Shown here one piece after another: positions 48 to 57,964 of a stretch of DNA of 58,200 nt. Numbering within the stretch: the first letter of the stretch is position 1; each line of letters begins with the position of its first letter. The stretch is from a virus. Taxonomy: Duplodnaviria; Caudoviricetes. The DNA lies in the IMG/VR virus record IMGVR_UViG_3300025889_000140, positions 1-58,200 of that record; one strand, 5' to 3'. The notes beneath the pieces were generated by a model. The model had not been told where the DNA came from. It saw only the letters and a program-made list of their open reading frames with translations, and searched no databases. Position numbers and translations under genes: made by a program.

Positions 48-155
48 ATGAAAGAAGAAATATTATATCAAATCGAAGAATTTGAAGACGGATATCTGTC
101 ACCTTATAGGTTAGTAGAAAAAATAAAGGAAATACTAAACAATACCACAGATTAA
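48..155 (+). CDS. small hypothetical early protein (35 aa)
   Basis: ATG at 48 after AT-rich leader; MKEEILYQIEEFEDGYLSPYRLVEKIKEILNNTTD*; stop TAA lies in stem I of hammerhead 1. Confidence 0.6.
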   Translation: MKEEILYQIEEFEDGYLSPYRLVEKIKEILNNTTD

Positions 156-206
156 CTGACGAGTCCTAAGAGGACGAAACACCTGAGTAATCAGGTGTCT
201 TAATCT
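149..206 (+). ncRNA. type I hammerhead ribozyme HH1
   Basis: agattaa-CUGACGA-gtcct/aag/aggac-GAAA-cacctga/gtaa/tcaggtg-UC-ttaatct; all core nucleotides and three stems present; predicted cleavage after C199 (GUC). Confidence 0.95.
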
Positions 207-821: not shown

Positions 822-886
822 GATTAACTGATGAGGGTTTATTATCCGAAACAGCTGTGCAATCTATTTGCATGGCTGTCTTAATC
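822..886 (+). ncRNA. type I hammerhead ribozyme HH2
   Basis: gattaa-CUGAUGA-gggt/ttatt/atcc-GAAA-cagctgtgcaa/tctat/ttgcatggctg-UC-ttaatc; predicted cleavage after C880 (GUC). Confidence 0.93.
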
Positions 887-1659: not shown

Positions 1660-1841
1660 AAGAGCAATATAGAATTTTACGAAGAATGCAAGAAGATGGC
1701 TACAACGTAGTCACTTGCGGTAATTGTGGCGATGTAGTGTTATTGGAAGTAGATGACACTATTGAGGACGTTCAATGTCCACACTGCAAAGAGACTATGG
1801 ACTATAGCGACATGCCAGATTTATACCACCAGATTAACTGA
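1656..1841 (+). CDS. small zinc-ribbon protein
   Basis: CGNC...CPHC pairs; stop TGA lies within HH3 core CUGAUGA. Confidence 0.75.
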   Translation: MKEQYRILRRMQEDGYNVVTCGNCGDVVLLEVDDTIEDVQCPHCKETMDYSDMPDLYHQIN

Positions 1842-1889
1842 TGAGACTTGAGTAGTCGAAAGGGTAGGAATTTTCCTACTCTCTTAATC
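1832..1889 (+). ncRNA. type I hammerhead ribozyme HH3
   Basis: gattaa-CUGAUGA-gact/tgagt/agtc-GAAA-gggtagga/attt/tcctactc-UC-ttaatc; predicted cleavage after C1883 (CUC). Confidence 0.93.
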
Positions 1890-5606: not shown

Positions 5607-5636
5607 GGGGGGGTGTGTAATGCACCTCCCTTTTTT
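5607..5636 (+). terminator. intrinsic terminator
   Basis: GC-rich hairpin gggggggtgt-gtaa-tgcacctccc followed by T6. Confidence 0.8.
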
Positions 5637-5887: not shown

Positions 5888-8305
5888 ATGACAGCAAAAG
5901 AAATCACAATTTTCCAGAACATTAAAGAGACCTCAACACCTTTCTTCAGAGACATAGATTTTATCTTAGAAAGAATAAAGTCTGGTGCGTCTAAAGACCT
6001 GGTGAAGAGGATAAGAACTGAGCAGAACAAGTCTCAGCGGAATGAACTAAAGAAAAACTTACCTGCTATTTGTTTTTCTGGCACGTTCAACAAAAGAAAT
6101 GACACTTCAATTATCCAACACTCTGGACTTATATGTTTAGACTTTGATGGGTACGAAAGCAACAAAGAGTTATTAACAGATAAAGAGAAGCTAACTAAGA
6201 GTAATTATATTTATTCTGTTTTTATATCACCATCTGGTAAGGGGTTGAAAGCACTTGTAAAGATACCTCAAGATGTAGACAACCACATAAACTATTTCAA
6301 TAGTTTAGAGATACACTTTAACAATCCTCACTTCGATGCAACGTGTAAGAACTTATCAAGAGTTTGTTACGAGTCATACGACCCATTGATTTATGTAAAT
6401 AAGAACTCAAGTGTATGGGAAGAGATTAAAGAAAAAGAATACACCGAGGTGAACACCAGGTTAGATGTTCCCACTATACCAATCACAGATGAGAATAAGA
6501 TTGTAGAAATCTTAGTGAAGTGGTGGACAAAAAAGTATCCTATGGTTGAGGGACAACGTAATAATAATTGCTATGTTCTGGCATCAGCGTTTAATGATTT
6601 TGGAATAAACAAATCATTGGCAGGATACGTACTCCAGAACTACAGAACATCTGATTTTTCTGAGAGTGAAATAAACCAGACCATAAACTCAGCGTATGCA
6701 CAGACTCAAAACTTTGGCACAAAGTATTATGAAGATGAAGAGAGAGTCAACAACATACGTGTAAAGCTCAGGCGAGGCACTTCTAAAAAGGAAATCAAAG
6801 CTCAGTTAGAGGACAGCCACATTGAAGCTAATGTTATAGAGGCCGTACTCAATAGAGTTGAAGAGGAAAATCAACAGAAACAATTCTGGACCAAGTCTGA
6901 AAAAGGAGTTATCAAGATTGTACATATTTTATTCAAGCAATTCCTGGAGGACAATGGCTTCTATAAGTATTGTCCAGAGGGTAGCAAGAATTATGTGTTT
7001 GTTAAGGTAACCAACAATCTTGTAGACCACACAGATGAGAAACAAATCAAAGACTTTGTTCTGAATAGTGTGATTGAGTTAGACGATGCTTCGATATATA
7101 ACCACTTTGCAGACCAGGTAAGGTACTTTAGAGAGGATTTCCTGACACTTCTGTCTACAATAGACATATACTTTGTCGAGGATAATAAGACCACCTCATA
7201 TCTTTACTATAATAATTGTGCTATAAAGGTTACGAAAGACAATGTAGAGATAATAGACTACATAGACCTCAATGGTTTTGTTTGGAAAGACCACGTCATA
7301 GACAGAGCTTTCAATAAATGCTCTATAGAGGGTTGTGATTACACAAAGTTTATTCATAACATCTGTGGTAATGAGCCAGACAGAATTAAATCAATGGAGT
7401 CAACGATAGGATTTCTTATGCATGGATATAAAAATCTAAGCTATTGTCCTGCTGTTATACTTAATGATGAGGTTATATCTGACAATCCAGAGGGCGGCAC
7501 AGGTAAAGGATTGTTTATGAATGCTTTACAACACATGAAGAAAGTTGTAACGATTGATGGAAAGTCGTTTACTTTTGAGAGGTCCTTTGCATACCAGTTA
7601 GTATCAGCAGATACACAGATACTGGTGTTCGATGATGTCAAGAAAAACTTTGACTTTGAAAGACTCTTCAGTGTTGTGACTGAGGGATTAACTTTAGAGA
7701 AGAAGAATAAAGATGCTATTAAAATTCCTTTCAGCAAGTCACCTAAGATTTCCATCACCACCAACTATGCAATCAAAGGAGCAGGTAATTCTTTTGCACG
7801 TAGAAAGTGGGAGCTTGAACTTCACCAGTACTACAACAAAAACTTTACTCCTCTTGATGAGTTTGGTAAACTAATGTTTGGTGATTGGAATGATGCCGAC
7901 TGGTGTAAGTTTGATAACTACATGGTTGGTTGTATGCAGGCCTATCTTGATACAGGACTAGTCAAAAGCAAGTTTGTAAATCTAAAAATCAGACAGCTTT
8001 CAGCAGAGTCTTCTTATGATTTCATTGAGTGGGTTGGACTTATCGAGGGTACAGATGCAGGTGCTGCTATACCAGTAAACTCAAGAATACACACCAACAA
8101 TCTATATCTAGATTTTATATCTGAGTATCCAGATTACGGACCAAAGTCCAGGCTATCTATATCTCAGGTCAGGTTTAATAAATGGCTAACAGCTTATGCT
8201 ATTTATAAAACAGGAGCTCAACCAGAAAAGGGTAGAGATGCTTCAGGTAGATGGATAAGATTGAAAAGAGAAGATGAAGTTAACGTGCAAACATCTATAC
8301 TATAA
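5888..8305 (+). CDS. primase-helicase (VirE_N/BT4734-like N-terminus, primase C-terminal domain, SF3/D5-like NTPase)
   Basis: LPAICFSGTF, HSGLICLDFD, FISPSGKGLK, SRVCYESYDP; GQRNN; Walker A GGTGKG, Walker B LVFDD, ITTN. Confidence 0.85.
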   Translation: MTAKEITIFQNIKETSTPFFRDIDFILERIKSGASKDLVKRIRTEQNKSQRNELKKNLPAICFSGTFNKRNDTSIIQHSGLICLDFDGYESNKELLTDKEKLTKSNYIYSVFISPSGKGLKALVKIPQDVDNHINYFNSLEIHFNNPHFDATCKNLSRVCYESYDPLIYVNKNSSVWEEIKEKEYTEVNTRLDVPTIPITDENKIVEILVKWWTKKYPMVEGQRNNNCYVLASAFNDFGINKSLAGYVLQNYRTSDFSESEINQTINSAYAQTQNFGTKYYEDEERVNNIRVKLRRGTSKKEIKAQLEDSHIEANVIEAVLNRVEEENQQKQFWTKSEKGVIKIVHILFKQFLEDNGFYKYCPEGSKNYVFVKVTNNLVDHTDEKQIKDFVLNSVIELDDASIYNHFADQVRYFREDFLTLLSTIDIYFVEDNKTTSYLYYNNCAIKVTKDNVEIIDYIDLNGFVWKDHVIDRAFNKCSIEGCDYTKFIHNICGNEPDRIKSMESTIGFLMHGYKNLSYCPAVILNDEVISDNPEGGTGKGLFMNALQHMKKVVTIDGKSFTFERSFAYQLVSADTQILVFDDVKKNFDFERLFSVVTEGLTLEKKNKDAIKIPFSKSPKISITTNYAIKGAGNSFARRKWELELHQYYNKNFTPLDEFGKLMFGDWNDADWCKFDNYMVGCMQAYLDTGLVKSKFVNLKIRQLSAESSYDFIEWVGLIEGTDAGAAIPVNSRIHTNNLYLDFISEYPDYGPKSRLSISQVRFNKWLTAYAIYKTGAQPEKGRDASGRWIRLKREDEVNVQTSIL

Positions 8306-12402: not shown

Positions 12403-12776
12403 TGACCGAAAAGGTAAAAGCTATAACTAAATTTACAGAAAGGTTTAAAGGTTCTTATAAAACATTAGGGCCTAATGATGTAGACTACAGAGTATATGAC
12501 CAAGCAAACAACCTTATAGCTTTTGTTTTGGTGATACCAATAAAAAAAAAGGTAACTGACTGCTACCCTTTATCTGTATCCTTAAATAAATTATCTCAGC
12601 TATCAATGAAACGTCTTAACCCAGTTATAATATGGGCTTGCGAAGATGGTATCATGTATGGTAAAGTAAAAGAAATATATGGAACTGTATCTTGGATGGG
12701 TACTACAGAACTGAACTCAGAGTTAGTAGTGCAGTACCCTAAACAGAAAACATTTAGATACGCTAGATATTATTAA
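12402..12776 (+). CDS. hypothetical protein
   Basis: 124-aa ORF; last + strand gene, converges on giant gene. Confidence 0.7.
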   Translation: MTEKVKAITKFTERFKGSYKTLGPNDVDYRVYDQANNLIAFVLVIPIKKKVTDCYPLSVSLNKLSQLSMKRLNPVIIWACEDGIMYGKVKEIYGTVSWMGTTELNSELVVQYPKQKTFRYARYY

Positions 12777-15700
12777 TCAAGACCCATAGCTGCGTCTATC
12801 TCTTTCTGGAGGTCACGCTTTCTTTTTCTCTCGTCTTTCTTTAGTTGCTCTACAGGAGCTAAGCTACCGCCTGGTCCGTACAATTCTTCATATAATCCAG
12901 GAGCAAATTTTTTCATATCTTTCTTGCTCATTCCCTTGCTTACACTACCTTTATTTTCAGGACGATATGATGGAGATATACCAAGCATGTCATAAACAGC
13001 AGGGTCTAAGTCCTCTTCTTCGCCACCGAAATAGTTGTATAATCCGATGAAAGGGTCAAGCTGTGCACCAATAGTTATCTCTGCTAAAGCTCTAGTCACA
13101 GCACCGATTTCACTTTCACCATTCTTGGTTAGCTTTCTGTACTTTTGCAATACACTAGCAACAGGATTTACAATATCATCATTAAATATTCTGCCTTTCT
13201 GCTTGTATTCTTCTCCTTTTATAGCAGAGATAACTCTACCAGCTACATCAAGTCCCTCTACTGTAGAGCCTAAGAATGGTATTTGATATATAAGGTTTAA
13301 TCCCATCATTGCTTCGGCCATTTTTTTAAGAGCTGCTTCCTTATCTTCATCATCACCCTTGATAAATTTAGCTATGTTAGACACACCTACAAACAATACG
13401 TTGGCAACAGCTAAGTTCAAAGCTAAATCTCTAGTGTCTTTTGAACGTGGTCTTTTCTTATTAGCCATGTCTCTTGTAATATTAGTAGTACTCTGCATAA
13501 CTTTATTCATCTGCAGGAATAATGTACTACCGAACATGGTAAATGCACGATTAAATATGTTACTATTCATTTGAAGTGGAATTTTATCTGTACCTCTTCT
13601 TGATTGCTGTGTAGCATTGTAATCATTAAAAGCTTTTACAGCATCGGCTTTACTCATTCCATTTGCAATGTTACGCTTGTAGTTAATCATGTAACCCATA
13701 ACCCCTAAGACATCACCAATTATTGTTGGTGAAGCTGCTGCAGTTTTAAACGCAGCTTGTGCTCTTTTAAGTTTACCTCCAGTAAGTGCGGTCTTCTTAA
13801 ATGTTTGCGAGCCAGATTCTAACCCATATACATCACCCTCTAGTCCTTGCTCAACCCTTTTTCTAAATGTAGGTGATATCTCCATAGCTTCTCTTATAGC
13901 TCCTTTCTTACCAACTAAATCTTTACCTAAGGACAAAGCTACTTTTGCTCCATCAATCATAAACATTGGCAAATCAACTGCTGCCTGTATAATTCTAGGA
14001 ACTCTAGAGTTGGCAGGGAAATAACTATAGTCAGAGTAAGCATTCACAAATGACGTTGCCTGCTTAAGTATCTGTATAGCTTTGAAAGCTAAAGCAAATC
14101 CTGTAAACTGAGTTTGTAATCTAGCTATAAGTTTTATACTTAGACTCGCATCCTTTCCAGAGTCTGGATTGATAGCAAAGTTAACAGCCTTTTTTATAGG
14201 CCCTGTTACACCCATCTCTTCTAGTAATACATTAACAGAGTCAATCTTAAATAAAGCATTCAGTCTCTGTGTACCTACAGCATACGCTTTATATTTCTCC
14301 ATTGTATCAACATGATTCTTAAGAACAGTTGTGAATGTTCCTGCGTGCAGGTCTACATCAGACCTCATGTCTACCCTTTCTTTAAAAGCAGGAGCAGATT
14401 CCGCATTGAACACACCATTGAAATCACCATCAGTAATCATCTTCTTGGTGGTCTCTTTCTGTATCGTTGATGTTGGGAAGTAGTTATTTACATATCCTAA
14501 ATTAACGTCATTAACGTAAGAATATACATCGTTAACACTCTCATAGTATTCATTGCTTAAGAAGTTTACAGTTTTATCAGTAAACTCTACAGCTTCTGGA
14601 CCTATGATACTTTTAATATTCTCTATAACCTCAGGAGTTATACCCTGAGCTTCAAGCTTCTGTCTTTGAACATCATTCAAGCTAAGTGCATATATACGCA
14701 TGAGTTCATCTGCATTAAACCTATCAGTATACTCTCGACCAGTATCACTACGCTTTAATTTTAAAACATGAACACCACTATTGAGTTTAGAATATATTTG
14801 TTTTGCTCCCTTGGTTATACCAGGGATTGTGTTTGCTATAGCATCAAGCTTGGCTTGAGTTTGGAATACACCAGCATTGTTAAGGTCATCCATTCTATTC
14901 AAAGCATCATAAACATTCTTGGTAAAAAAGTTTTTACCCTGAGTCACTCTGTCCAACACATTACTTAATGTGCCTAAGTGCTGGAACATTTGCTTCATGT
15001 TCTGAATAAACTCTTTGGCCGTACTAAATGCCATTCTCTCACCCAGTGCACTAAAAGCTTTACCTATTTCAAAGCTTCTGAAGTGAGAAAGTATCTCATT
15101 CTTTCTGGCGTTACGCTCATTTTTATTTAAAACATTTCCATCAGCATCAAACAACATAGGATTGGTATCCTTAATCTGAGCATCAGCCTCCTCTTTCATT
15201 TTCTTGTTTGCTTCTACTCTTGCTTGTCTTCTTGATTTAAACGTAGCAATTGATTCGGCTCTAACATCTTTCAGCTGTTGCATTAAGTCTTGAACTTCTT
15301 CCAAGCTCATGTTAGATACATCACCGAAAGTGTCCATAGCCAACGCTAAATTAACTTTGGCCTGCTCTTTTTGAGTTAACTTCTGTCCATCATTCTGCTT
15401 CTCTATAAGATTATTTATCTCGGTGCTTTCATTTTGCAGGTCCTGTTGTATTTTATTAAGGTCATCTATATCAGCTGTAAGTATTTGTTTTACAGCTTTG
15501 AAGTATGCTGTACCCTCTCGACTTAAACCTTTAGCTCTACGCTTACCAGACTTAGTGAATGCAGTCATAGCTTTTGCTTTGACTAGCTTAAGCATGTCCT
15601 TGACAAGAGCATTCTTCATTTTAGTCTTTTGCTGGTCTACAATCTTCATTACATACTCAGTATCTGCCTGGAATGTATCCACTGTAGACTTTGTAACACG

Positions 15701-18700
15701 TGATATAAGCCTGTTTATTTGAGCTTGAGTATACATCTTAGACTTTGGTAAAGCCTTTCTTATATAGTTTCTTAATTGTATCTGTGCGGCCTTTAAATTT
15801 TGGCTATTTATTTTACGCTGTCTTAGGTTGTTTTTAATCGCAGCTATTTCTTTTTGCACAGCAACATTAGAACGTGTGTTCAATGTCTTGTCAAAGTCTA
15901 CTAGAATCTCCATCTGAGTTTGTTCTGGCTGAGCTTTGTAGATTGGATTCTCTTTAATTAAATCCATTGCCTTTTGTCTAACCTCAGATAATGTTTTTTC
16001 TGGCGTAGTAAACTTAGAAAGCTTCTGTCTCACCTCATTAAACAACTGCATGCCCTGGCTAACACCACCCTCTACTCTGCCAAACGCTTCTGGCAGTGGT
16101 GTAAATGCATCAACCTTAACTTCCATAGCAGCGTTTATATCAGCAACTTTAAAGCCTCTGTCTTTTAAAACCTCTTTAATAGATGCGTCTGAGAATCCGT
16201 TCTGTCTTCCCTTATTTATAATAGCACCCATTGAATCTGTCTTACTGAATGCAGCATCAGGATTCTTAAGTTTTTTCTCCTGAGCTTTAGTAAGGTTTAT
16301 TTCTTTACCAGCAAAGATGTCAGCAAGTGCAGTTCCAAGGAATGTATCTAGATTCATATCCTGAATTTCTTCAGCCGTCAAATCTTTTGACATTTTAAAT
16401 TGAGACTTGATGTAGTTCCACATACCTAAAAGCCACTGAGTAAATTTACTCTTTACTGCTCCGTCTGCTATTGTCTGTCCTTTGTTTCCAATAAGGATAG
16501 CCATAGTTTCATTAGCGGCCTTTGCTTTGTCTCCGTTGAAGTTCTTAAGTTGCTTCTTATATTCTTCTGTTTGCTCTACAAGTTTTACACCTTGTGCATA
16601 TATAGCTTTTCCTTTCTTTGTAGTCTGTAAGTAGTCAGTCCACACGTGACCCATCTCGTGAATAGATGTGTTAAATAAAGCTGATTGAGAATTATGTACG
16701 TCTGGATTTACATATATATCACCATCAACAGTAACACCATATATAACCTCATCACCTTTCAGATATTTTTTTACACCCTCAGACTCCATAACATTATTAA
16801 ATGTTGAAGTGTCAGTGGATATGGTGACAGACGGAAAAGAAATATTCATAAAAGCATTTAGCTTAGCAACATTATCCATGTTGGTTTGCGCTAGTGCTCC
16901 CTCAAATTCGAGTCCAGGTAAGCCATATTGTACTCCTAATTTTTGCGTCAATATAGTTCCAACACTAGCTGGAGCAAGCTCACCCTCAACTAATTGCCCT
17001 TTACTTTTTTCTGCTTTTGTTTTTGTTACTCTATCTTGTTTCGTTTCAGCTGATGTTAATCCAGCCATAGCTAATCTATAAGCTTCTGGGTAGGTTTCAA
17101 TCAATGAAACTGGCTGCTCTAATATCCCTATGGTTTTTCCTTTAGGACCAAAAGGATAATTAGGGTGATTTGTTTCTATAACATCATCAACTGTTACATC
17201 AACCGCCTGTAATGCTATTATACTTCTTTGTGGCACATTAGCTAGTTGAGGCTCAGTAATAAGGTCTGTAATTTCCTGTATATGAGTTAAGCTAGCAGTC
17301 TCTGTGCTAGCCTCCATGCCCTCTAATAAAGCAAGCGCAACAGGCTTACCGCTTTTAGTTGGCATAGTTACCTTTTTCTTTGGTGCACCAGCTCTACGAA
17401 CTGAACCAGTAGTAATTCTTTTACCCAGTAATTCTCTTGTGGGTATATTTAATTGAGACAGAAACTCTGCGTTTAATATTTGTTCTATTGAACTCATATC
17501 TTTCATAGCTTCTATAACATTCTCTATGTTTGTTATTTCTTCTTGATACTTTTTTAAAGTCGTATCAGTACCCTGACCTTTTTTAATTGACTCTGCTCTT
17601 CTATTTGCAATATCTTGCAGGTCTTGTCTTAAAACCTCTAAAGCTTTTACTTTGTTTTCAGCAGGTACTTTAGACAGGTTGTCTTTAAGTACTCTAAAAA
17701 CAGCTTCATTTGAAGCTATAGAGCCCTCACCCATCTTAACGATGTTCATAGGAACATGTCCATTAAATTCTGGATTGTCTTTCCAGAACTTATCAAACAA
17801 TTCTTTGTTATCGTTGTATACTTTCTTTGCTTTGTCTAATAATCTTTGTGCTTCTTCTTTTGTAGTACTTGCCCACGCAGCGTTCTCATTTCCAATTGTA
17901 CCAGTAAATCCTAATCCACCTCTTAAATTATCTATGGTGTTTCCAGTAAAAATATTTACAATGTTACCTGTAGTAAGCTGGTCTGATATATTAAATATAG
18001 CAGGTATACCATTAATTACCTCTAAGGTTTTTATTGATGGAAGCTTTCTGTCTGTTCTGCTATTGAGTTCGTTAACATCAATAGTGCCCTCAGGTTTTAC
18101 CACAAGATTGGTAGACACGTTTCCTGACTGCGTTTCGTTGATTGCCTTAGTGACTGCATCTACTTCACCTTTTATAGGGGTAAATGAATCGTCTTCTTTC
18201 TTTCTGAAGTCTACCTTAGTATCGTCTAAGGAAGTTTCTAAATCAGCAACCTCTTGTGCTGCAGCAGTTGCGCTAGCTTGTAGCTCTTTTATTCCTGGCA
18301 GGTATTCTTCTGTAGTAATACCCTGGAACTTAGCGTCATTCTCTACTGCTTGGAGGAGCGAGTTATAAAGACTTGACCCAGTTTGTCGGTCAGCGGACCT
18401 TTTGCTCGCAGCTCGTCCAAGAATTTCTTTCCTTTTTCCCTGGTCGACATAGACGGAGTTGACTGGTCGGTAGTTTTGTTTTTCATAAGTAATATTATTA
18501 GCTTCTAATTCCTGTACAAAGATACCAATTTTATCTTGAAGAGTTGGGTCATCAAAGTCAAATATATTTATAAAACTTACTTCCCCTGTATCTTCGTTGA
18601 TAGTAAAATCAGTTATCCCTGCTTTTTTCAAAGCATCTATTGTGCCTTGAGTATCTGTAACATTTAATGTATATTCATTTCCATTGTGGTTTTCTGCTCC

Positions 18701-21700
18701 CTCTTCAACATAAGTAGCAGCAATGCTACTCTCTTGTGTTTCAGGAGCTAAGGCAGCTGCTAATGCAGCATATTCCTCTGCTTGTTCTATTGTTGCATTC
18801 TTCAATACAACTCTGTTAGATATCTCTACTATCTCTGTACCTGCATCGTTTTTATACCCACCGATACCCTCTTCAACTTCAACCTCTAATCCTAGTTGTT
18901 GTCCTATACCAGTTAAGTTGTTCTTATATTGCTGATAGCCCTCGCTTTCTCTTAACGTCTGTGCTTGTTCAGCACTCTCAATTGTAGTGTCGAAGAATGG
19001 AGCAACAGCTACGACTGTCTCTGGTTTAGTAGTAGGCGTTACAGTTATACCTAGTTTTTGTTTCTGGTCAGTAGTTAATTGAGCTATTTTTTTAGGATTG
19101 TTTACTTCAGTGCCACTTCTCTCTGATGTTTTTTCAAAGACCTCTTCACCAGGTGCAAAAACATCTTTCACTTGTTGTTCAGCAGTTATTCCATCTCTAA
19201 TAACTATATCATTGTCTGCAAGGTTTACGTCAAAAGCACCTGAGTCATCAATAAGAGTTCCATCTGAATCAAACCTTTTAACTCTTGCACCTGTACCAAA
19301 GGAGCCATCTAAGTATGTTTTTACAGTTACCTCTTGTCTACTTCCATCTTCATTAGTTACAGTAAATGTTTCTTCCTTTAAAACAACATTATTATCTTGA
19401 AACTTTTTAGTTTCAACTACCTCCTGCGTTTCGGTGGTCTCAACCCCTGGGGTTTCTTCGAGTGATACTTCTGTTCCCACTCCTGTGCCAATTGCGGCTT
19501 GTTGGCGTGCATCCACGCTCTCTGTTTCTGGCTTTTGAACGGCATTTATTTTATCATTTAATTGGTTAGCAACTTCTTCATCATTAACAACCTTACCATT
19601 GAACTTAGTCAGCTCACGAACACTCATTTTACCAAGCTTCTTTAAGAACTCTTGCTTGGTGTAACTCTTTCCGTCAATTACATACTGAGATAGACCAGCT
19701 CTAACATCACCAACCTCTACGCCTGGTGAGAATATAGATTCTATCTTTGCTCTCTTGTTGTCTGGAGCTAATGATTTGTTTTCTATAAGATATGCAATCT
19801 CTGCATTTATATCTTTTATCTTCTGACTAAACACTTCTTTACGATTAGTGTCTGCAGTATATTCTTCTTTGGCCGCTAACAATTCCATTAGTCTAGCCTT
19901 AACTCTTTTATTCTTAGGTCTGTTTTTACTTCTTCCAAAATCCAGCATATTATCTGCATCTTTAGATAGGCCTAAGTTTTTTTGTATACGTTGTCCTTGG
20001 TCTTCGTTAATCTTACCAAGTGCAAGCATATTATTTGTCCATGCTGATATTCTGGTGTCTGATTCTTTCTCGTTAACAATAAAGTTTATATCTGTAAGCT
20101 TAGAAGCAAGCTCTATGTTAGACATATTACGTGCATCTATAAGCTTGTTAACAGCCATCATACTGGCGTTGCTACCAAAACCACCGATACCCTCAGCCGC
20201 AATATCTTTCCAATCTAACTGGTCACCAACTACAACTTGAGCTGTTGCTTCACCAGCCATCTCACCAATAGGGTCAAAGATAGCACGTTCAGCTAATTGC
20301 GATGCAATTTTTTTAGTTCTTGTTGCTGTCTTACCTACCTTAAAAACACGACCAGCTAATCCTGAAGTAAAATAATCAACCATTGCAATTGGAATACCAC
20401 GTTTAAAACCACGTTCTTTAGCTAATGCCCATACATCTTCATCTTGTATAGCTAACTCAACGTCTTTAGCATCAAGAACATCATAGCCCTCAGATTCCAT
20501 AGCTGCAAAAAACTCATTAGTATATTCCATGGCTAAATTTGTCATAGCCATACCAGCTCTAGCTCCTTTTTGAGCTCCTAATACTGCTCCAGGAATTGCT
20601 CCAACCCCACCAGCAGTTGCTCCAACCCCTGCACCAACCCCTGCACCAGTCACTGTAGAAGCTGTTACTATTTCAAATCCATAAGGTAGCATCATAGCTA
20701 TAGAATTTGCAGCTAAAGACAATGCTAATTCTCCAGGGTTTCTTAAAAAAGCATCTAAGCTTTCTCTAAACCCTTTAGCCCTGTAGTATCTTGATAATGC
20801 TCTTGAATCTTTTTTACCTCTGTTTTTAGTCTTAAAAGCTACTATCATTTCAGCGGCTTTTTTTACATCTTCTGGATTGTCAAGGTCTAATGATTGAAAA
20901 TCAAAAGGCATACCAGTAGATAACTGAAGTATTACTTCAGCGGCATTACCATCATTAAGACCTTTCCGTATTTCGTTTAGTGCTGCAGAGAAGCCTGTCT
21001 CGAACTCACCCATAATACTTTTATCGTACTTAGCACTATAAAAAGTCTTAGCTGATTCATATATGTTTGCTGCATGTTGTTTCTCTGCATTGAGCGATGC
21101 GACCTGAACTTTGAAGCTGTCTAGTAATGCAGCTTCTCTCTCTGTTTCTGGCTTTACGTCTGTTAAGTTTTTTAGTTCAACACCAAAAGTTTCTAGTGCT
21201 TCAATTTCCAACGCTTCCTCAAAAGCTTTGGCTTGATAGTTTGCAATTGATGCGTCTTTAGCTAATGCTGAATATTTTTTCTGTAATAACAAGTCATATT
21301 TTTCTCTCAATTCTATCTTTTCTGATGTATTAACCTCAGAATATAAATCATCTTCTATTTTTTTAAGCTCTGCTAAAACCTCATCAGTATCATCTCTTAA
21401 AATACCATCGACATATAAGCCACCATAAAGTTTCTTTTGCTCAGGTGTTAGCTCTTCAATATAATCTGCTCCGAAATCTGCAACCTGAGATTCTATAAAA
21501 TCTATTTTATCTCTTACCTCTAAATACTTATCATATTTTGCTTGTTCAGTTTTAAAGTTTAGACCAGTATCTGAGTATAATTTTTTACCTACGGCATCTG
21601 TCGAGTGTGTGTCTTTCCACTCACCCTCTGCAAATCTTTGTGCTTCTTCTTCTGTATCAAACTGAAAAACCTCACCCCTTTCTTCAGCTACTTTTTTTGC

Positions 21701-22714
21701 TTCCTCAAAATCTAACTTCATCCAGTCATTAGGATTCGTTCCGTAGAACTCAGGATTTTTTGGGAATAAAGTTGGAATAGCATAATGCTTTCCATCTTCC
21801 TCATAAGATGTCATCAAGACAGTAGAGGCAGTCCCATCAGCATTTATCAGCCCTACTCTTCGTAGCTGTTGAGCTTTTAAAGATTTACCCTCGAAGTCTA
21901 AGGCTTCATTTGTTTCAAACTCTTCAAGAGCATGTTGCGATAAAAAGTTTTTTAGCTTTTGAGATTCTAATATCTCTGTGTCTGTGGTAAAAGGGTCGAG
22001 GTCAATTGTTTCTGTAGCTGAACCATCAAAATTAGTAACAATCATTTTGTCACCAATACCAGTTTCTTCAAAACTAAACCCATACTTCTGAAACTTTTTA
22101 TTTAAAGCAGGGACAACAGACTCTTCTTCTTGAGCAATAAGGTCAGCAGTAACAATTGATAAATCATTTTGAAACTGTTCACTTTGTTGTAGTAATGTTT
22201 GGTTTATTTTTTGCTGCTCTAACTGAGCTTCTTGGTCTAGCTTTTCTTGAGTTTTAAAAGCTTCCATGTCCAGTTTACGCTGAGCATCAAAAGCCTCTTT
22301 AGCTTCTCTTTCTTGAGCTACTTGAACAGGGTCTCTAAACTTTGGCTGTGCAACTCTTGTTTGGTCTATCGCTTGTACTGGAGGTTGCTCTCGTAAATCA
22401 ACACCATCTTCTTGAATATTGTACTTAGTCTTGAATCGCTCCAATAAACCAACTTCCGAATCTGAGACCGAAGCGTCTTTTTTTTTTACTTCAACCTCAT
22501 CTTCAACAAACGATTCTGTTTTAAGCTTAGGGGACTTGTACTTCAACAAAAACTCTTCTTTTGTTTTGGTATATAAACCATCTCTAGATACCACTCCAAA
22601 CACTTGGTCTTTGTACGCATCGCTTCCGTTATACTTCTGTATAAATTCTTCGTAAGAATTAGTGTAATATCCCTCTCTTACTAGAGTATCATAAAGTTTT
22701 TTTAATTCGTCCAT
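12773..22714 (-). CDS. giant virion/ejection (polyvalent-type) protein with zincin HExxH motif
   Basis: 3313-aa ORF at end of structural operon; IHEMGHVW; Gly/Ala hydrophobic segment. Confidence 0.75.
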   Translation of the reverse strand: MDELKKLYDTLVREGYYTNSYEEFIQKYNGSDAYKDQVFGVVSRDGLYTKTKEEFLLKYKSPKLKTESFVEDEVEVKKKDASVSDSEVGLLERFKTKYNIQEDGVDLREQPPVQAIDQTRVAQPKFRDPVQVAQEREAKEAFDAQRKLDMEAFKTQEKLDQEAQLEQQKINQTLLQQSEQFQNDLSIVTADLIAQEEESVVPALNKKFQKYGFSFEETGIGDKMIVTNFDGSATETIDLDPFTTDTEILESQKLKNFLSQHALEEFETNEALDFEGKSLKAQQLRRVGLINADGTASTVLMTSYEEDGKHYAIPTLFPKNPEFYGTNPNDWMKLDFEEAKKVAEERGEVFQFDTEEEAQRFAEGEWKDTHSTDAVGKKLYSDTGLNFKTEQAKYDKYLEVRDKIDFIESQVADFGADYIEELTPEQKKLYGGLYVDGILRDDTDEVLAELKKIEDDLYSEVNTSEKIELREKYDLLLQKKYSALAKDASIANYQAKAFEEALEIEALETFGVELKNLTDVKPETEREAALLDSFKVQVASLNAEKQHAANIYESAKTFYSAKYDKSIMGEFETGFSAALNEIRKGLNDGNAAEVILQLSTGMPFDFQSLDLDNPEDVKKAAEMIVAFKTKNRGKKDSRALSRYYRAKGFRESLDAFLRNPGELALSLAANSIAMMLPYGFEIVTASTVTGAGVGAGVGATAGGVGAIPGAVLGAQKGARAGMAMTNLAMEYTNEFFAAMESEGYDVLDAKDVELAIQDEDVWALAKERGFKRGIPIAMVDYFTSGLAGRVFKVGKTATRTKKIASQLAERAIFDPIGEMAGEATAQVVVGDQLDWKDIAAEGIGGFGSNASMMAVNKLIDARNMSNIELASKLTDINFIVNEKESDTRISAWTNNMLALGKINEDQGQRIQKNLGLSKDADNMLDFGRSKNRPKNKRVKARLMELLAAKEEYTADTNRKEVFSQKIKDINAEIAYLIENKSLAPDNKRAKIESIFSPGVEVGDVRAGLSQYVIDGKSYTKQEFLKKLGKMSVRELTKFNGKVVNDEEVANQLNDKINAVQKPETESVDARQQAAIGTGVGTEVSLEETPGVETTETQEVVETKKFQDNNVVLKEETFTVTNEDGSRQEVTVKTYLDGSFGTGARVKRFDSDGTLIDDSGAFDVNLADNDIVIRDGITAEQQVKDVFAPGEEVFEKTSERSGTEVNNPKKIAQLTTDQKQKLGITVTPTTKPETVVAVAPFFDTTIESAEQAQTLRESEGYQQYKNNLTGIGQQLGLEVEVEEGIGGYKNDAGTEIVEISNRVVLKNATIEQAEEYAALAAALAPETQESSIAATYVEEGAENHNGNEYTLNVTDTQGTIDALKKAGITDFTINEDTGEVSFINIFDFDDPTLQDKIGIFVQELEANNITYEKQNYRPVNSVYVDQGKRKEILGRAASKRSADRQTGSSLYNSLLQAVENDAKFQGITTEEYLPGIKELQASATAAAQEVADLETSLDDTKVDFRKKEDDSFTPIKGEVDAVTKAINETQSGNVSTNLVVKPEGTIDVNELNSRTDRKLPSIKTLEVINGIPAIFNISDQLTTGNIVNIFTGNTIDNLRGGLGFTGTIGNENAAWASTTKEEAQRLLDKAKKVYNDNKELFDKFWKDNPEFNGHVPMNIVKMGEGSIASNEAVFRVLKDNLSKVPAENKVKALEVLRQDLQDIANRRAESIKKGQGTDTTLKKYQEEITNIENVIEAMKDMSSIEQILNAEFLSQLNIPTRELLGKRITTGSVRRAGAPKKKVTMPTKSGKPVALALLEGMEASTETASLTHIQEITDLITEPQLANVPQRSIIALQAVDVTVDDVIETNHPNYPFGPKGKTIGILEQPVSLIETYPEAYRLAMAGLTSAETKQDRVTKTKAEKSKGQLVEGELAPASVGTILTQKLGVQYGLPGLEFEGALAQTNMDNVAKLNAFMNISFPSVTISTDTSTFNNVMESEGVKKYLKGDEVIYGVTVDGDIYVNPDVHNSQSALFNTSIHEMGHVWTDYLQTTKKGKAIYAQGVKLVEQTEEYKKQLKNFNGDKAKAANETMAILIGNKGQTIADGAVKSKFTQWLLGMWNYIKSQFKMSKDLTAEEIQDMNLDTFLGTALADIFAGKEINLTKAQEKKLKNPDAAFSKTDSMGAIINKGRQNGFSDASIKEVLKDRGFKVADINAAMEVKVDAFTPLPEAFGRVEGGVSQGMQLFNEVRQKLSKFTTPEKTLSEVRQKAMDLIKENPIYKAQPEQTQMEILVDFDKTLNTRSNVAVQKEIAAIKNNLRQRKINSQNLKAAQIQLRNYIRKALPKSKMYTQAQINRLISRVTKSTVDTFQADTEYVMKIVDQQKTKMKNALVKDMLKLVKAKAMTAFTKSGKRRAKGLSREGTAYFKAVKQILTADIDDLNKIQQDLQNESTEINNLIEKQNDGQKLTQKEQAKVNLALAMDTFGDVSNMSLEEVQDLMQQLKDVRAESIATFKSRRQARVEANKKMKEEADAQIKDTNPMLFDADGNVLNKNERNARKNEILSHFRSFEIGKAFSALGERMAFSTAKEFIQNMKQMFQHLGTLSNVLDRVTQGKNFFTKNVYDALNRMDDLNNAGVFQTQAKLDAIANTIPGITKGAKQIYSKLNSGVHVLKLKRSDTGREYTDRFNADELMRIYALSLNDVQRQKLEAQGITPEVIENIKSIIGPEAVEFTDKTVNFLSNEYYESVNDVYSYVNDVNLGYVNNYFPTSTIQKETTKKMITDGDFNGVFNAESAPAFKERVDMRSDVDLHAGTFTTVLKNHVDTMEKYKAYAVGTQRLNALFKIDSVNVLLEEMGVTGPIKKAVNFAINPDSGKDASLSIKLIARLQTQFTGFALAFKAIQILKQATSFVNAYSDYSYFPANSRVPRIIQAAVDLPMFMIDGAKVALSLGKDLVGKKGAIREAMEISPTFRKRVEQGLEGDVYGLESGSQTFKKTALTGGKLKRAQAAFKTAAASPTIIGDVLGVMGYMINYKRNIANGMSKADAVKAFNDYNATQQSRRGTDKIPLQMNSNIFNRAFTMFGSTLFLQMNKVMQSTTNITRDMANKKRPRSKDTRDLALNLAVANVLFVGVSNIAKFIKGDDEDKEAALKKMAEAMMGLNLIYQIPFLGSTVEGLDVAGRVISAIKGEEYKQKGRIFNDDIVNPVASVLQKYRKLTKNGESEIGAVTRALAEITIGAQLDPFIGLYNYFGGEEEDLDPAVYDMLGISPSYRPENKGSVSKGMSKKDMKKFAPGLYEELYGPGGSLAPVEQLKKDERKRKRDLQKEIDAAMGLD

Positions 22715-56528: not shown

Positions 56529-56716
56529 ATCTCAAAGTTTTTGTAAAGATACAAAATTTATTAGATACATAGGGGTTGGAGGTTCCACTGCGCCACACGC
56601 AAACCGACCCACAACGGAAAGCGATATTTTTTTTGCCACCCCCCATAGCGATTTGTTCCCTGCACTCTGGATTTTTTTGCCTTTTTTTTTGACCTGTCCT
56701 ACCCTGGTAGTCCTAT

Positions 56717-56794
56717 CCCCTTACCCCTGTCCTGTCCAGGTTACACAAACCCCTTACCCCTGTAGGATTTCCCCCTATATCCCCCCATATCCCC
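56717..56794. repeat. C-rich repeats (G-runs on - strand)
   Basis: ccccttacccctgt at 56717 and 56750; C5/C6/C4 runs at 10-nt spacing 56771-56794. Confidence 0.7.
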
Positions 56795-57003
56795 TAACGT
56801 TTACCAGATAAACTTCTTAAGAAGCACAGAGAAGTGCGTTAATCTCTCGCCCAGTTTCCAGTTGTCTAAACATTTAACAGGGAACAAAGACAGATAATGC
56901 GTTGATATTCAATAAGTTAAGTGCGAAAGAACACAATTTTTATTAGAATGATTATAAATTAAAAAAATTTTCCAGGTTAAAATGCATTTTTTTTAAAAAA
57001 CCA

Positions 57004-57066
57004 TTAGGAATTTACAAAAGTATTAAACTATATTTGTACCAGAATTGAACGCTCATTGACATATTG
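57004..57066 (+). promoter_or_regulatory. early promoter plus boxA-like element
   Basis: TTAG-N21-TATATTTG (57029-57036) after A/T tracts; GCTCATTGACATATTG at 57051-57066. Confidence 0.65.
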
Positions 57067-57518
57067 ACTTCCCATCGAGAGTACGAGAGTACGCTTCGAG
57101 TAATGCTACGAGTAGCCCAGATAACACCTGGTTACTGCTCTGGGTTATCGCTGAAGACAGGGCCTGCCAGAACATCGGTATAGCTGTCCAGATATCCGCA
57201 ATCATATCCGTTCGATATGGTGCTACCAGAGTTTCTTACAGAGGCGAGTACCAGATACACTCGAGAGTCCAGGTAATTCAGGGACTCAAGGGAAGACAAC
57301 TGCGAGTACAAGTGAAACCAGGGAAGAGTCGAAAGACTCCGAAAGATTGCCTACCAGTAGGGTGCTATCACGATAACCAAGTGTTTAACCATCTGTAGAT
57401 GGAGCGAAAAGGATTGTAGTCCTGGACTGATTGTACGACTCTGAAGCATCGGTATCTGAACGACAGACTAGTGGGAGCAATACCCATGCCGATGACTAAT
57501 TTTAACCAGGCGAAAGCC
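57066..57518 (+). ncRNA. large structured non-coding leader RNA (unassigned)
   Basis: no ORF; GC-rich relative to genome; at least 10 hairpins, several with GNRA loops. Confidence 0.7.
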
Positions 57519-57532
57519 ATAAATTTTATATC

Positions 57533-57910
57533 ATGCAAAAATTAACGCAAGAACAACTAGACAACAGGGATGAAATCAAAATCGTAAAGAAGCTACTCTC
57601 GATGACAGCACATGTAATCTCGAAAGAAAACGAGGACAAATCCTGGAAACTACAGATAAGCACACCAGATTTCAAGGTGGTGATGAGATTCCACATGCAA
57701 GATTGCCCAGTGAAAGTCCTGAGATACGGAATACAAACCTGGTCGCTAAGTGTTCTCAACTCGAAAGGGAACAGGGTAATGTATAACTCCAGTGTAAATC
57801 CTCAGGTAGCTCAACTGATTGGTGAACTGGTGGGAGGGCACGAAGAGAAAACCCAGAAGCAAGACCAGAAGCAAGACTGGAAAGACCTAGAAACGTTTTT
57901 CAACCTGTAG
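57533..57910 (+). CDS. hypothetical early protein
   Basis: 125 aa; first gene of early transcript; stop TAG overlaps HH4 stem I. Confidence 0.75.
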   Translation: MQKLTQEQLDNRDEIKIVKKLLSMTAHVISKENEDKSWKLQISTPDFKVVMRFHMQDCPVKVLRYGIQTWSLSVLNSKGNRVMYNSSVNPQVAQLIGELVGGHEEKTQKQDQKQDWKDLETFFNL

Positions 57911-57964
57911 ATTAACTGATGAGACCTGATAGGTCGAAACCACCTCACCAGGTGGTCTTAATCT
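57909..57964 (+). ncRNA. type I hammerhead ribozyme HH4
   Basis: agattaa-CUGAUGA-gacct/gat/aggtc-GAAA-ccacct/cacc/aggtgg-UC-ttaatct; predicted cleavage after C57957 (GUC). Confidence 0.95.

Follow-up and report, generated by a model that had tools for sequence, protein, structure and literature searches.

A covarying leader RNA heads the early operon of a clade of uncultivated phages in which hammerhead cores separate the small early genes

The stretch of DNA analyzed here, called the window below, is the whole of the 58.2-kb IMG/VR virus record IMGVR_UViG_3300025889_000140, which is estimated to be 96% complete. It belongs to a set of ~60-kb uncultivated phages, as judged from its genes for a portal protein, a terminase, GroEL with GroES, and a primase-helicase, and its nearest GenBank records are MW202828.1 and the Flavobacterium 'elemo' podophages. 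Plus-strand genes run from about position 57050 across the record end to 12776, and the late genes are encoded on the minus strand. Our subject is the leader region of the early operon, which lies on the plus strand between a promoter box (57029-57036) and the first early open reading frame (ORF), beginning at 57533. The operon extends for ~6.8 kb up to a strong intrinsic terminator (5607-5631, plus strand), in which an 11-base-pair (bp) G-rich stem is followed by TTTTTT. This terminator sits between the small early genes and those for replication, with the primase-helicase gene starting past it at 5888. Within the leader region we describe a structured RNA of 431 nucleotides (nt), spanning 57064-57494 on the plus strand, that is conserved by covariation among homologous copies from related phages.

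A first-pass annotation, made from the letters of the window alone, had proposed that an ORF-free, GC-rich and highly structured noncoding RNA (ncRNA) heads the early transcript. The first two of these descriptions agree well with our results. There is no ATG, GTG or TTG ORF of at least 60 amino acids (aa) on the plus strand of 57066-57532, and the GC content of the leader region is 48.3% compared with 36.2% genome-wide, which makes it the most GC-rich 453-nt stretch in the genome, equaled by no other segment of that length (step 50). One frame is free of stops for 110 codons but has no start codon. Coding in a changed genetic code, with TAG recoded, was considered for this long open frame, which lacks ATG, GTG and TTG and contains two TAG codons, and was rejected; the coding reading also fails on conservation, given that relatives with 95% identical GroEL have nothing alignable over 57068-57360. 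Similarly, no conserved short leader peptide emerged among the homologues when their ATGs were compared by eye. An enrichment of CCAG and CGAG was discarded as a signal because it is due to leader composition and repeated boxes, and Markov expectation reveals no genome-wide depletion of TCGA or CGAG.

The description 'highly structured' fares less well when judged by folding energy, which is not better than that of dinucleotide shuffles. For the whole region, z is -1.41 on the plus strand and -0.31 on the minus strand, and for sub-regions it is -1.43 (core alone) and -1.50 (5' insert alone). Because these values are not significant, the description would not stand on single-sequence evidence alone. 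The first-pass annotation had itself named a folding energy no better than shuffles as grounds for giving up its claim, but the covariation reported below overrides this result.

Homologues could not be collected by way of the neighboring coding sequence, as no relatives of the first early protein were found among viral contigs and the small early proteins gave no matches in PHROGs. The GroEL gene, located 1 kb from the leader, served as bait for 80 related loci from viral contigs. Relatives whose GroEL proteins are 90-97% identical have little sequence in common with 57068-57360. In two loci, L005 and L008, the segment 57360-57505 can be aligned, and the hairpin stems located there differ in sequence yet still pair. 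A covariance model (R1) was built from these two sequences and the window. When used to scan the other 77 GroEL-linked loci and MW202828, R1 returned no copy. A 27-nt pattern from the conserved part was also scanned against metagenome contigs, and all 29 of the loci it retrieved match R1 (52-141 bits). The same pattern yielded one more IMG/VR viral contig and one contig from a metagenome-assembled genome (MAG), and both are R1 matches.

In total, 34 homologous copies were obtained, ~24 of them distinct and all from uncultivated relatives. In 31 of the 34 copies, the letters of the 27-nt pattern (GATAACCAA, TTAAC and CTGTAG) cannot vary, because the pattern selected for them, and the breadth of the RNA family is probably underestimated. 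A search of viral contigs with the pattern CGGTATCTGAWMGACMRG retrieved 31 stretches, of which two are real (the contigs of L005 and L008) and 29 are in unrelated sequence. Matches to the motif in L081, L029 and L033 fall inside genes and were set aside as chance. A blastn comparison of three different leader copies with GenBank phages gave no match. One copy of the leader RNA, together with seven hammerhead cores, is carried by L262, a 5.8-kb contig in a MAG labeled Aliivibrio. This looks like a contig of the same phage group and not like bacterial DNA, and the bin label should not be taken as the host.

The leader RNA adopts a three-domain fold consisting of a helix, P0, that closes a mosaic variable module (Domain I), a multi-branch core formed by P1 through P5 (Domain II), and a three-way junction formed by P6 through P8 (Domain III). 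Its homologues range from ~260 nt for the smallest to ~500 nt. Each of the nine helices is backed by compensatory changes or by replacement of the helix. Two alignments were evaluated, one fitted to the model (A3, 24 distinct rows) and one made with MAFFT without regard to structure (A4, 23 distinct sequences). In A3, 97.1% of the cells pair, compared with 78.8% in shuffles (none of 500 shuffles gets that high), and compensatory changes occur in 17 of 22 pairs. Sliding the partners by 1-3 columns lowers the pairing to 28-46%. The structure-blind alignment gives 89.7% pairing versus 78.2% when shuffled (again 0 of 500 get that high), and its slid controls reach 27-39%. Covariation that preserves helices above controls, the general mark of a conserved structured RNA, is therefore present in this family. 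Furthermore, G-U pairs are frequent and would be A-C mismatches on the opposite strand, which establishes the plus strand as the RNA strand.

Domain I (57064-57299) is closed by P0 (57064-57073 with 57290-57299), which pairs bases just after a family-wide TTGACAT motif with bases just before P1. The first-pass annotation had proposed this contact as a possible long-range pairing of cttccc (57068) with gggaag (57290), and covariation in the homologues backs it. P0 is present in 23 of 23 sequences as a helix of 7-12 bp built from quite different letters. Cognate strands have a mean duplex energy of -16.6 kcal/mol compared with -9.5 kcal/mol for non-cognate strands, and 2.4% of 288 non-cognate pairs attain the cognate mean.

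The conserved core, Domain II (57306-57436), begins and ends with P1 (57306-57310 with 57432-57436). This is the second long-range pair that had been suggested, gtacaa (57306) with ttgtac (57431), and it too is backed by covariation: the strands are GUACA/UGUAC in most homologues, GUAGA/UCUAC in L247 and GUUGU/RCAAC in the L008 type. A UGA-rich internal loop (AGUGAAA/ACUGAU in the window) separates P1 from P2 (57318-57323 with 57420-57425). The P2 strands of the window, CCAGGG/UCCUGG, are replaced in homologues by UCUAAGA/UCUUAGA, UCCGA/UCGGA, UCAAAGC/GCUUUGA, CAAUAG/CUAUUG, CAAUAU/AUAUUG and others, and there is a further contrast between GCA..GG/CC..UGC and GCC..GG/CC..GGC. P1, the internal loop and P2 are found by RNAduplex in 23 of 23 sequences, with energies of -11.3 kcal/mol (cognate) versus -6.6 kcal/mol (non-cognate) and with 3.7% of 296 non-cognate pairings attaining the cognate mean. 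A local hairpin proposed earlier within this domain, aggat-tgta-gtcct ('H3'), is probably wrong, because its 3' arm is the 3' strand of the covarying P2, which supersedes it.

Inside P2, the window carries a lineage-specific hairpin (57326-57339), followed by P3 (~57349-57365), a hairpin of varying length that by eye keeps a constant place in every subtype. P4 (57369-57371 with 57381-57383) has 3 bp, all of which covary, and encloses the 9-nt loop GAUAACCAA. P5 (57389-57393 with 57398-57402) is the ccatc-tgta-gatgg hairpin that had been read from the window, and its covariation upholds that reading. A joiner in this domain has the sequence GCGAAAA. Two additional contacts were tried and rejected. 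For a pairing of a GAUAACC loop with GGUAUC, the second partner becomes ACUACC while the first is unchanged, and for a pairing of the P5 loop UGUA with P1 no covariation was seen.

Domain III (57447-57494) corresponds to the multibranch element, catcgg...ccgatg with a GCAA-type loop, that had been recognized in the window and that the homologues also support by covariation. It comprises P6 (57447-57452 with 57489-57494), P7 (57456-57458 with 57464-57466) and P8 (57471-57475 with 57483-57487). The P8 loop is AGCAAUA here, with a GNRA-like GCAA within it, and AGCRAWA across homologues. On A3, this domain has compensatory changes in 12 of 14 pairs with 95-100% of the cells paired, and the first pair of P8 is G-U in 15 of 23-24 rows. 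The junction was also considered as a terminator and rejected, as 5 nt lie between the stem and a short U run that is not conserved.

Between the TTGACAT motif and P4 there are 127 nt in some homologues and up to 373 nt in others, and this ~250-nt difference in module length sits inside P0, as interchangeable modules. In many homologues, the variable module contains a palindromic box, CTGAKAATCAR, that occurs twice and flanks a hairpin. Examples are found on the minus strand of L008 (3010-2955) and of L005 (300-240), as well as in most other homologues. The two copies are able to base-pair; alternatively, a dimeric DNA-binding protein could use them as operators. The window lineage has no such box and carries CGAGAGTAC/CGAGTA repeats instead. 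It also has a multi-branch insert of 150 nt (57093-57245, plus strand), in which five compensatory pairs distinguish its two sub-lineages. The leader is thus a mosaicism hot spot, the probable reason for the breaks that many related contigs show within 0.4-1.4 kb on the upstream side of GroEL, towards or within the leader.

Several small hairpins named in the first-pass annotation belong to this variable part or to the window's own lineage, and their fates are mixed. The gacag/ctgtc hairpin is supported by one compensatory change. The atcatatc/gatatggt hairpin holds as a lineage-specific element and not as a family-wide one: L259 has another hairpin in its place, and it is mostly absent from one RNA contig, which leaves out 22 + 7 nt of the insert hairpin around 57195-57224. 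The tagcccaga/tctgggtta pairing is probably mistaken, since it is lost in the L257 lineage and RNAalifold pairs the bases otherwise. The gtac-GAGA-gtac, gagtc-GAAA-gactc, cgagt/actcg and gagtcc/ggactc hairpins occur solely in the window's lineage.

Upstream of the fold, the promoter box TATATTTG (57029-57036, plus strand), read from the sequence, is of the Bacteroidota -7 type with the pattern TAnnTTTG, which we take to be the consensus, and it presumably serves as the early-operon promoter. Most homologues have a box like it 15-30 nt ahead of the TTGACAT motif. The motif itself occurs in the window as TCATTGACATATTGA (57053-57067, plus strand; family consensus GTTC[AT]TTGACATnnTGA, that is, GTTC[AT]TTGACAT), at the transcript start. 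It precedes P4 by the 127-373 nt given above in all 22 homologous loci that have enough upstream sequence. Because sister clades with unrelated leaders share the motif, it is more likely to be a transcription-start signal than a part of the fold.

Two other kinds of leader were seen in such sister clades. L019 (minus strand, ~1670-1100) and L026 (minus strand, ~2750-2190) have a different GC-rich, ORF-poor leader of ~500 nt after TTGACAT, which may be another unknown large leader RNA. A T-loop-like element in these leaders, GGTTCGACTCC, resembling a tRNA T-arm, was considered as a sign of a tRNA or transfer-messenger RNA (tmRNA) and dropped, as neither ARAGORN nor Rfam makes such a call. A third leader type of ~250 nt, in L032 (minus strand, ~2440-2190) and L065 (minus strand, ~2810-2560), has a canonical intrinsic terminator ~20 nt before the first ATG, which suggests attenuation or a separate small RNA.

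Evidence that the leader is transcribed comes from assembled contigs of four sequencing runs (X16, X17, X19 and X20), of which X16 may be DNA. Contig ends and depths taken from assemblies are unreliable for RNA ends and levels and are hints at most. In two metatranscriptome studies, RNA-library contigs have their first base at 57052 and 57055, 16-19 nt past the promoter box, and in a third run, possibly of DNA, the contig runs through the promoter. One RNA contig of 350 nt extends from 57055 to a point just after the 3' strand of P1. Its depth is 20.9 compared with 3.1 for a contig of the downstream gene in the same RNA run, a weak hint. Runs X17, X20 and X16 provide no cover over 57364-57446 and are uninformative for that segment. 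These observations support transcription of the leader from a start near 57040-57052, and with regard to processing the RNA contigs give hints only.

Between the leader RNA and the first ATG lies an A/U-rich translation-start module (57496-57532, plus strand) with the arrangement CUAAUUUUAACC, a ggc-GAAA-gcc hairpin (57509-57518) and AUAAAUUUUAUAUC. The RNA ends 21 nt before the ATG in eight of 22 homologues. In four copies, including the window, the spacing is 37 nt, and in these the small GGC-GAAA-GCC hairpin is inserted. This hairpin had been counted among the elements of the noncoding RNA. It does not belong to the conserved RNA and is part of a module that recurs after a hammerhead at 1884-1909. 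Copies of this TTAAYCAGGCGAAAGCCA-A/T-rich module at 57503-57527 (after the leader RNA) and 1884-1909 (after the fourth hammerhead), both on the plus strand, are 92% identical over 25 nt, and the same module follows hammerheads in L008. The first early ORF (57533-57910, plus strand) encodes 125 aa with no family match. Its identity varies across the family: among 22 loci there are 16 distinct N-terminal hexamers and, by eye, ~9-10 unrelated proteins. The leader RNA is present once per genome, with a single copy in the window, as judged by the R1 scan.

No established RNA family accounts for the leader. At the gathering score, Rfam 15 has no match anywhere in the window. A cmscan search at E up to 10, a comparison that the first-pass annotation had called for, finds nothing inside 57066-57518, the only nearby match being a hammerhead at 57911-57962. 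In six homologous loci searched at E up to 1, the only matches are downstream hammerheads and two sub-threshold, opposite-strand chance matches. The Rfam 15 classes that the leader fails to match include ribozymes, riboswitches, RAGATH motifs, ROOL, GOLLD, group I and II introns, GIR1 and EAR. ARAGORN calls no tRNA or tmRNA genes in the window or in 12 related loci. A hammerhead was considered separately, on the basis of a three-way junction with the core CUGANGA/GAAA/UH and joiners of 7, 3 and 1 nt. The P6/P7/P8 joiners of 3, 4 and 1 nt lack the core letters, and this assignment was rejected. We found no description of the leader RNA in the literature, although a motif given solely in paper supplements would escape such a search. 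With a covarying multi-domain fold in ~24 distinct homologues, no Rfam match and RNA contigs that cover it, the proposal that the early transcript starts with a large structured ncRNA of a novel kind stands, and we regard it as nearly certain that the leader is a real and new family of structured RNA.

The genes that follow the leader are arranged in a manner that bears on its function. The small early genes of the window are set apart by four hammerhead cores of type I, so that every cistron but the first follows a hammerhead and the first follows the leader RNA. The first candidate (57910-57963, plus strand) has a complete core as read from the sequence (GATTAA, CTGATGAG, stem II, CGAAAC, stem III and GTC/TTAATC) and lies 21 nt before the next ATG. 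It is matched by Rfam model RF00163 over 57911-57962 with 20.5 bits (E = 0.082). The second (150-205, plus strand) has a CTGACGAG core recognized by eye and lies 21 nt before the ATG at 221, the third (822-886, plus strand) lies 21 nt before the ATG at 902, and the fourth (1832-1889, plus strand) is followed by a AGGCGAAAGCC hairpin module like that at 57507-57518. All four are under the Rfam gathering scores, the best reaching 20.5 bits versus the required 34.

The same organization is evident across the family. Hammerhead cores on the same strand follow genes in 20 of the 24 homologous loci with at least 800 nt of downstream sequence, with up to eight cores in 4 kb and with no antisense cores. 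An upstream core is seen in L245 only, at a distance of 750 nt. Hammerheads that flank phage genes are described in the account of Perreault et al. 2011 (PMC3088659). As presented in that account, the first ORF of a polycistronic early transcript in the haloviruses HF1 and HF2 is preceded, 13 nt upstream, by a hammerhead, and the mapped 5' end is at the hammerhead cleavage site (PMC3088659). A looser parallel is offered by RNA viruses, in which 5' untranslated region ribozymes are described as enabling translation (PMC13725137).

Given this arrangement, the reading that we tentatively favor, while granting that it is somewhat less than an even prospect, is that the leader acts in cis, to process the transcript or to set the 5' end of the first mRNA, and may do so by cleaving itself. 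The first-pass annotation had listed an antiterminator, a protein sponge and a ribozyme as candidate functions. None of these is matched by a known family, and the position of the leader relative to the hammerheads weakly favors processing or a ribozyme. With a start near 57040-57052, the leader makes up the untranslated first part of the early transcript, and on the processing reading the folded RNA would act in cis, either by cleaving itself or by guiding a host RNase. The cut would free the first cistron of the long leader and leave it with a short A/U-rich 5' leader like those of the later cistrons that are presumed to be released by hammerheads, and the detached leader might persist as a stable RNA. 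This reading is proposed because of the positional equivalence with the hammerheads and because of the precedent described for HF1 and HF2 (PMC3088659). Part of the parallel is metric, in that three of the four hammerhead cleavage sites in the window, and the leader end in eight of 22 homologues, are 21 nt from an ATG. Likewise, the A/U-rich module after the leader RNA is of the same kind as that after hammerhead cleavage sites.

Several observations weigh against this proposal. The Rfam searches of the window and of six homologous loci turn up no known ribozyme family for the leader, the joiners of its three-way junction (3, 4 and 1 nt) are unlike a hammerhead core, and the small self-cleaving classes are several-fold smaller than this RNA. 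For GAUAACCAA, UUAAC and CUGUAG, invariance was forced by the search pattern behind 31 of the 34 copies. The family has been seen in one phage clade only. The 21-nt spacing may reflect only a shared, recombining translation-start module. Moreover, a contig from RNA run X19 spans the whole core, the first gene and a hammerhead, which implies that at least some molecules (or contaminating DNA) are uncut.

Among the alternatives, processive antitermination or an anti-Rho function is unlikely but has some attractive features. The leader would stay with RNA polymerase in the manner of HK022 put or Bacillus EAR, or would deny Rho a loading site, such that the whole operon is transcribed. Its promoter-proximal, single-copy location, its independence from the identity of the following gene, and its place at the head of a ~6.8-kb operon that reaches the strong terminator at 5607-5631 are all as expected for such an element. 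In addition, the leader of the sister clade L032/L065, ending in an intrinsic terminator just before the first gene, suggests control of termination. However, there are no convincing intrinsic terminators inside the early operon of the window before 5607-5631, and terminator-like matches near genes are hammerhead stems. The leader also has no likeness to any Rfam family, and put and EAR are much smaller.

It is rather unlikely that the conserved core P1-P8 represents a new catalytic class, either self-cleaving or branching (capping-like), that would free the folded leader as a stable RNA and make the 5' end of the first mRNA. We are comparably doubtful that the leader, whole or cut, serves as a trans-acting early ncRNA, namely a stable RNA that titrates a host or phage protein or RNA (e.g., a defense or RNA-decay factor) and whose variable module is engaged in an arms race. 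The leader would be the first RNA made, its mosaic module has repeated boxes (CTGAKAATCAR twice in many homologues, CGAGAGTAC/CGAGTA here), and the 9-nt invariant-looking loop GAUAACCAA resembles a seed or kissing loop; but the invariance of this loop is imposed by the search pattern, and the boxes are DNA palindromes that could equally be operators. The deeper leader contig in one RNA run points weakly in the same direction, against which no terminator separates the leader from the mRNA.

A riboswitch-like sensor, whose core binds a small molecule or ion that reports on the host state and thereby gates translation or stability of the early message, is decidedly unlikely. The multi-branch core has conserved joiners and an end ~21 nt from the start codon, with a size and complexity like those of large riboswitch aptamers, yet the downstream gene varies and is never metabolic, no alternative pairing of the core with the start region was found, and no known riboswitch class matches. 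It is highly improbable that the conserved features are DNA-level signals (operators, an origin, or a packaging or injection signal near the genome end) with an incidental RNA fold, for despite the palindromic boxes, the family-wide TTGACAT motif and the many related contigs that break in this area, the compensatory changes keep pairing and not sequence, G-U pairs would be A-C on the other strand and are weak in DNA, and RNA contigs cover the region.

Large and complex ncRNAs are rare, and those with known function are mostly ribozymes or scaffolds of RNA-protein machines. The leader presents an unusually clear comparative signal and a fixed place at the head of a hammerhead-punctuated early operon in uncultivated phages that resemble phages of Flavobacteriia. 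Self-cleavage would make it a new class of ribozyme, and an effect on transcription or the titration of a host factor would make it a new takeover device for phages of Bacteroidota. Either way, biochemists and structural biologists gain a defined RNA of 260-430 nt to study. Early gene expression in these phages appears to rely on RNA-level processing.

Some other features of the window are worth recording. A block at 56560-56810 is kept in relatives (GGAAAGCGAYATTTTTTT, GGATTTTTTGCC) and then gives way to short pyrimidine-rich repeats resembling CCCCT and CCTGT. It is directly upstream of the early promoter, many related contigs stop within ~1 kb of it, and it is a possible genome end, origin or packaging signal. 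On the minus strand, 12773-22714 is an ORF of 3313 aa that has no PHROG match and lies among virion genes; its size and place are reminiscent of the giant virion proteins (injected RNA polymerases) found in N4-like and crAss-like phages. Finally, GATC and CCGG each occur 0 times in the whole window, compared with ~152 and ~17 occurrences expected from a Markov model, and this complete avoidance is presumably due to host restriction systems.

As a structured leader RNA in the early operon of a phage, the element is of a known kind, and its fold is unrelated to those of described members. GOLLD and ROOL are large structured RNAs linked to phages and prophages, and the leader is like them in being a large, complex, covarying and phage-borne ncRNA of unassigned function. 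It differs from them in that it matches neither model, is fused to an mRNA rather than free-standing near tRNAs, and is confined to one phage clade. The put RNAs of HK022, the nut sites of lambda and the EAR element of Bacillus are cis-acting antitermination RNAs that, like the leader, are promoter-proximal and structured, head long operons and are independent of the gene that follows. In contrast with these, the leader has no Rfam match, is much larger, and heads an operon in which no terminators to overcome were found.

The leader of the T7 early transcript contains the RNase III processing site R0.3. There, as here, the first gene is set apart from the early promoters by a structured element, and processing sites separate the cistrons. 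The T7 sites are simple hairpins cut by a host enzyme, whereas the element described here is a multi-domain RNA and the sites between cistrons are candidate ribozymes. The hammerheads of phage transcripts described in PMC3088659 differ from the leader in their core, which it does not possess, in their junction, which is unlike that of the leader, and in size (~55 nt versus ~430 nt), and cleavage of the leader is putative. Nevertheless, the hammerheads of the HF1/HF2 type, as that source presents them (PMC3088659), likewise are folded RNAs that lie shortly before a start codon, at a fixed distance, in a polycistronic early transcript. In the operon described here, the hammerhead cores before the later genes hold the place equivalent to that of the leader before the first.

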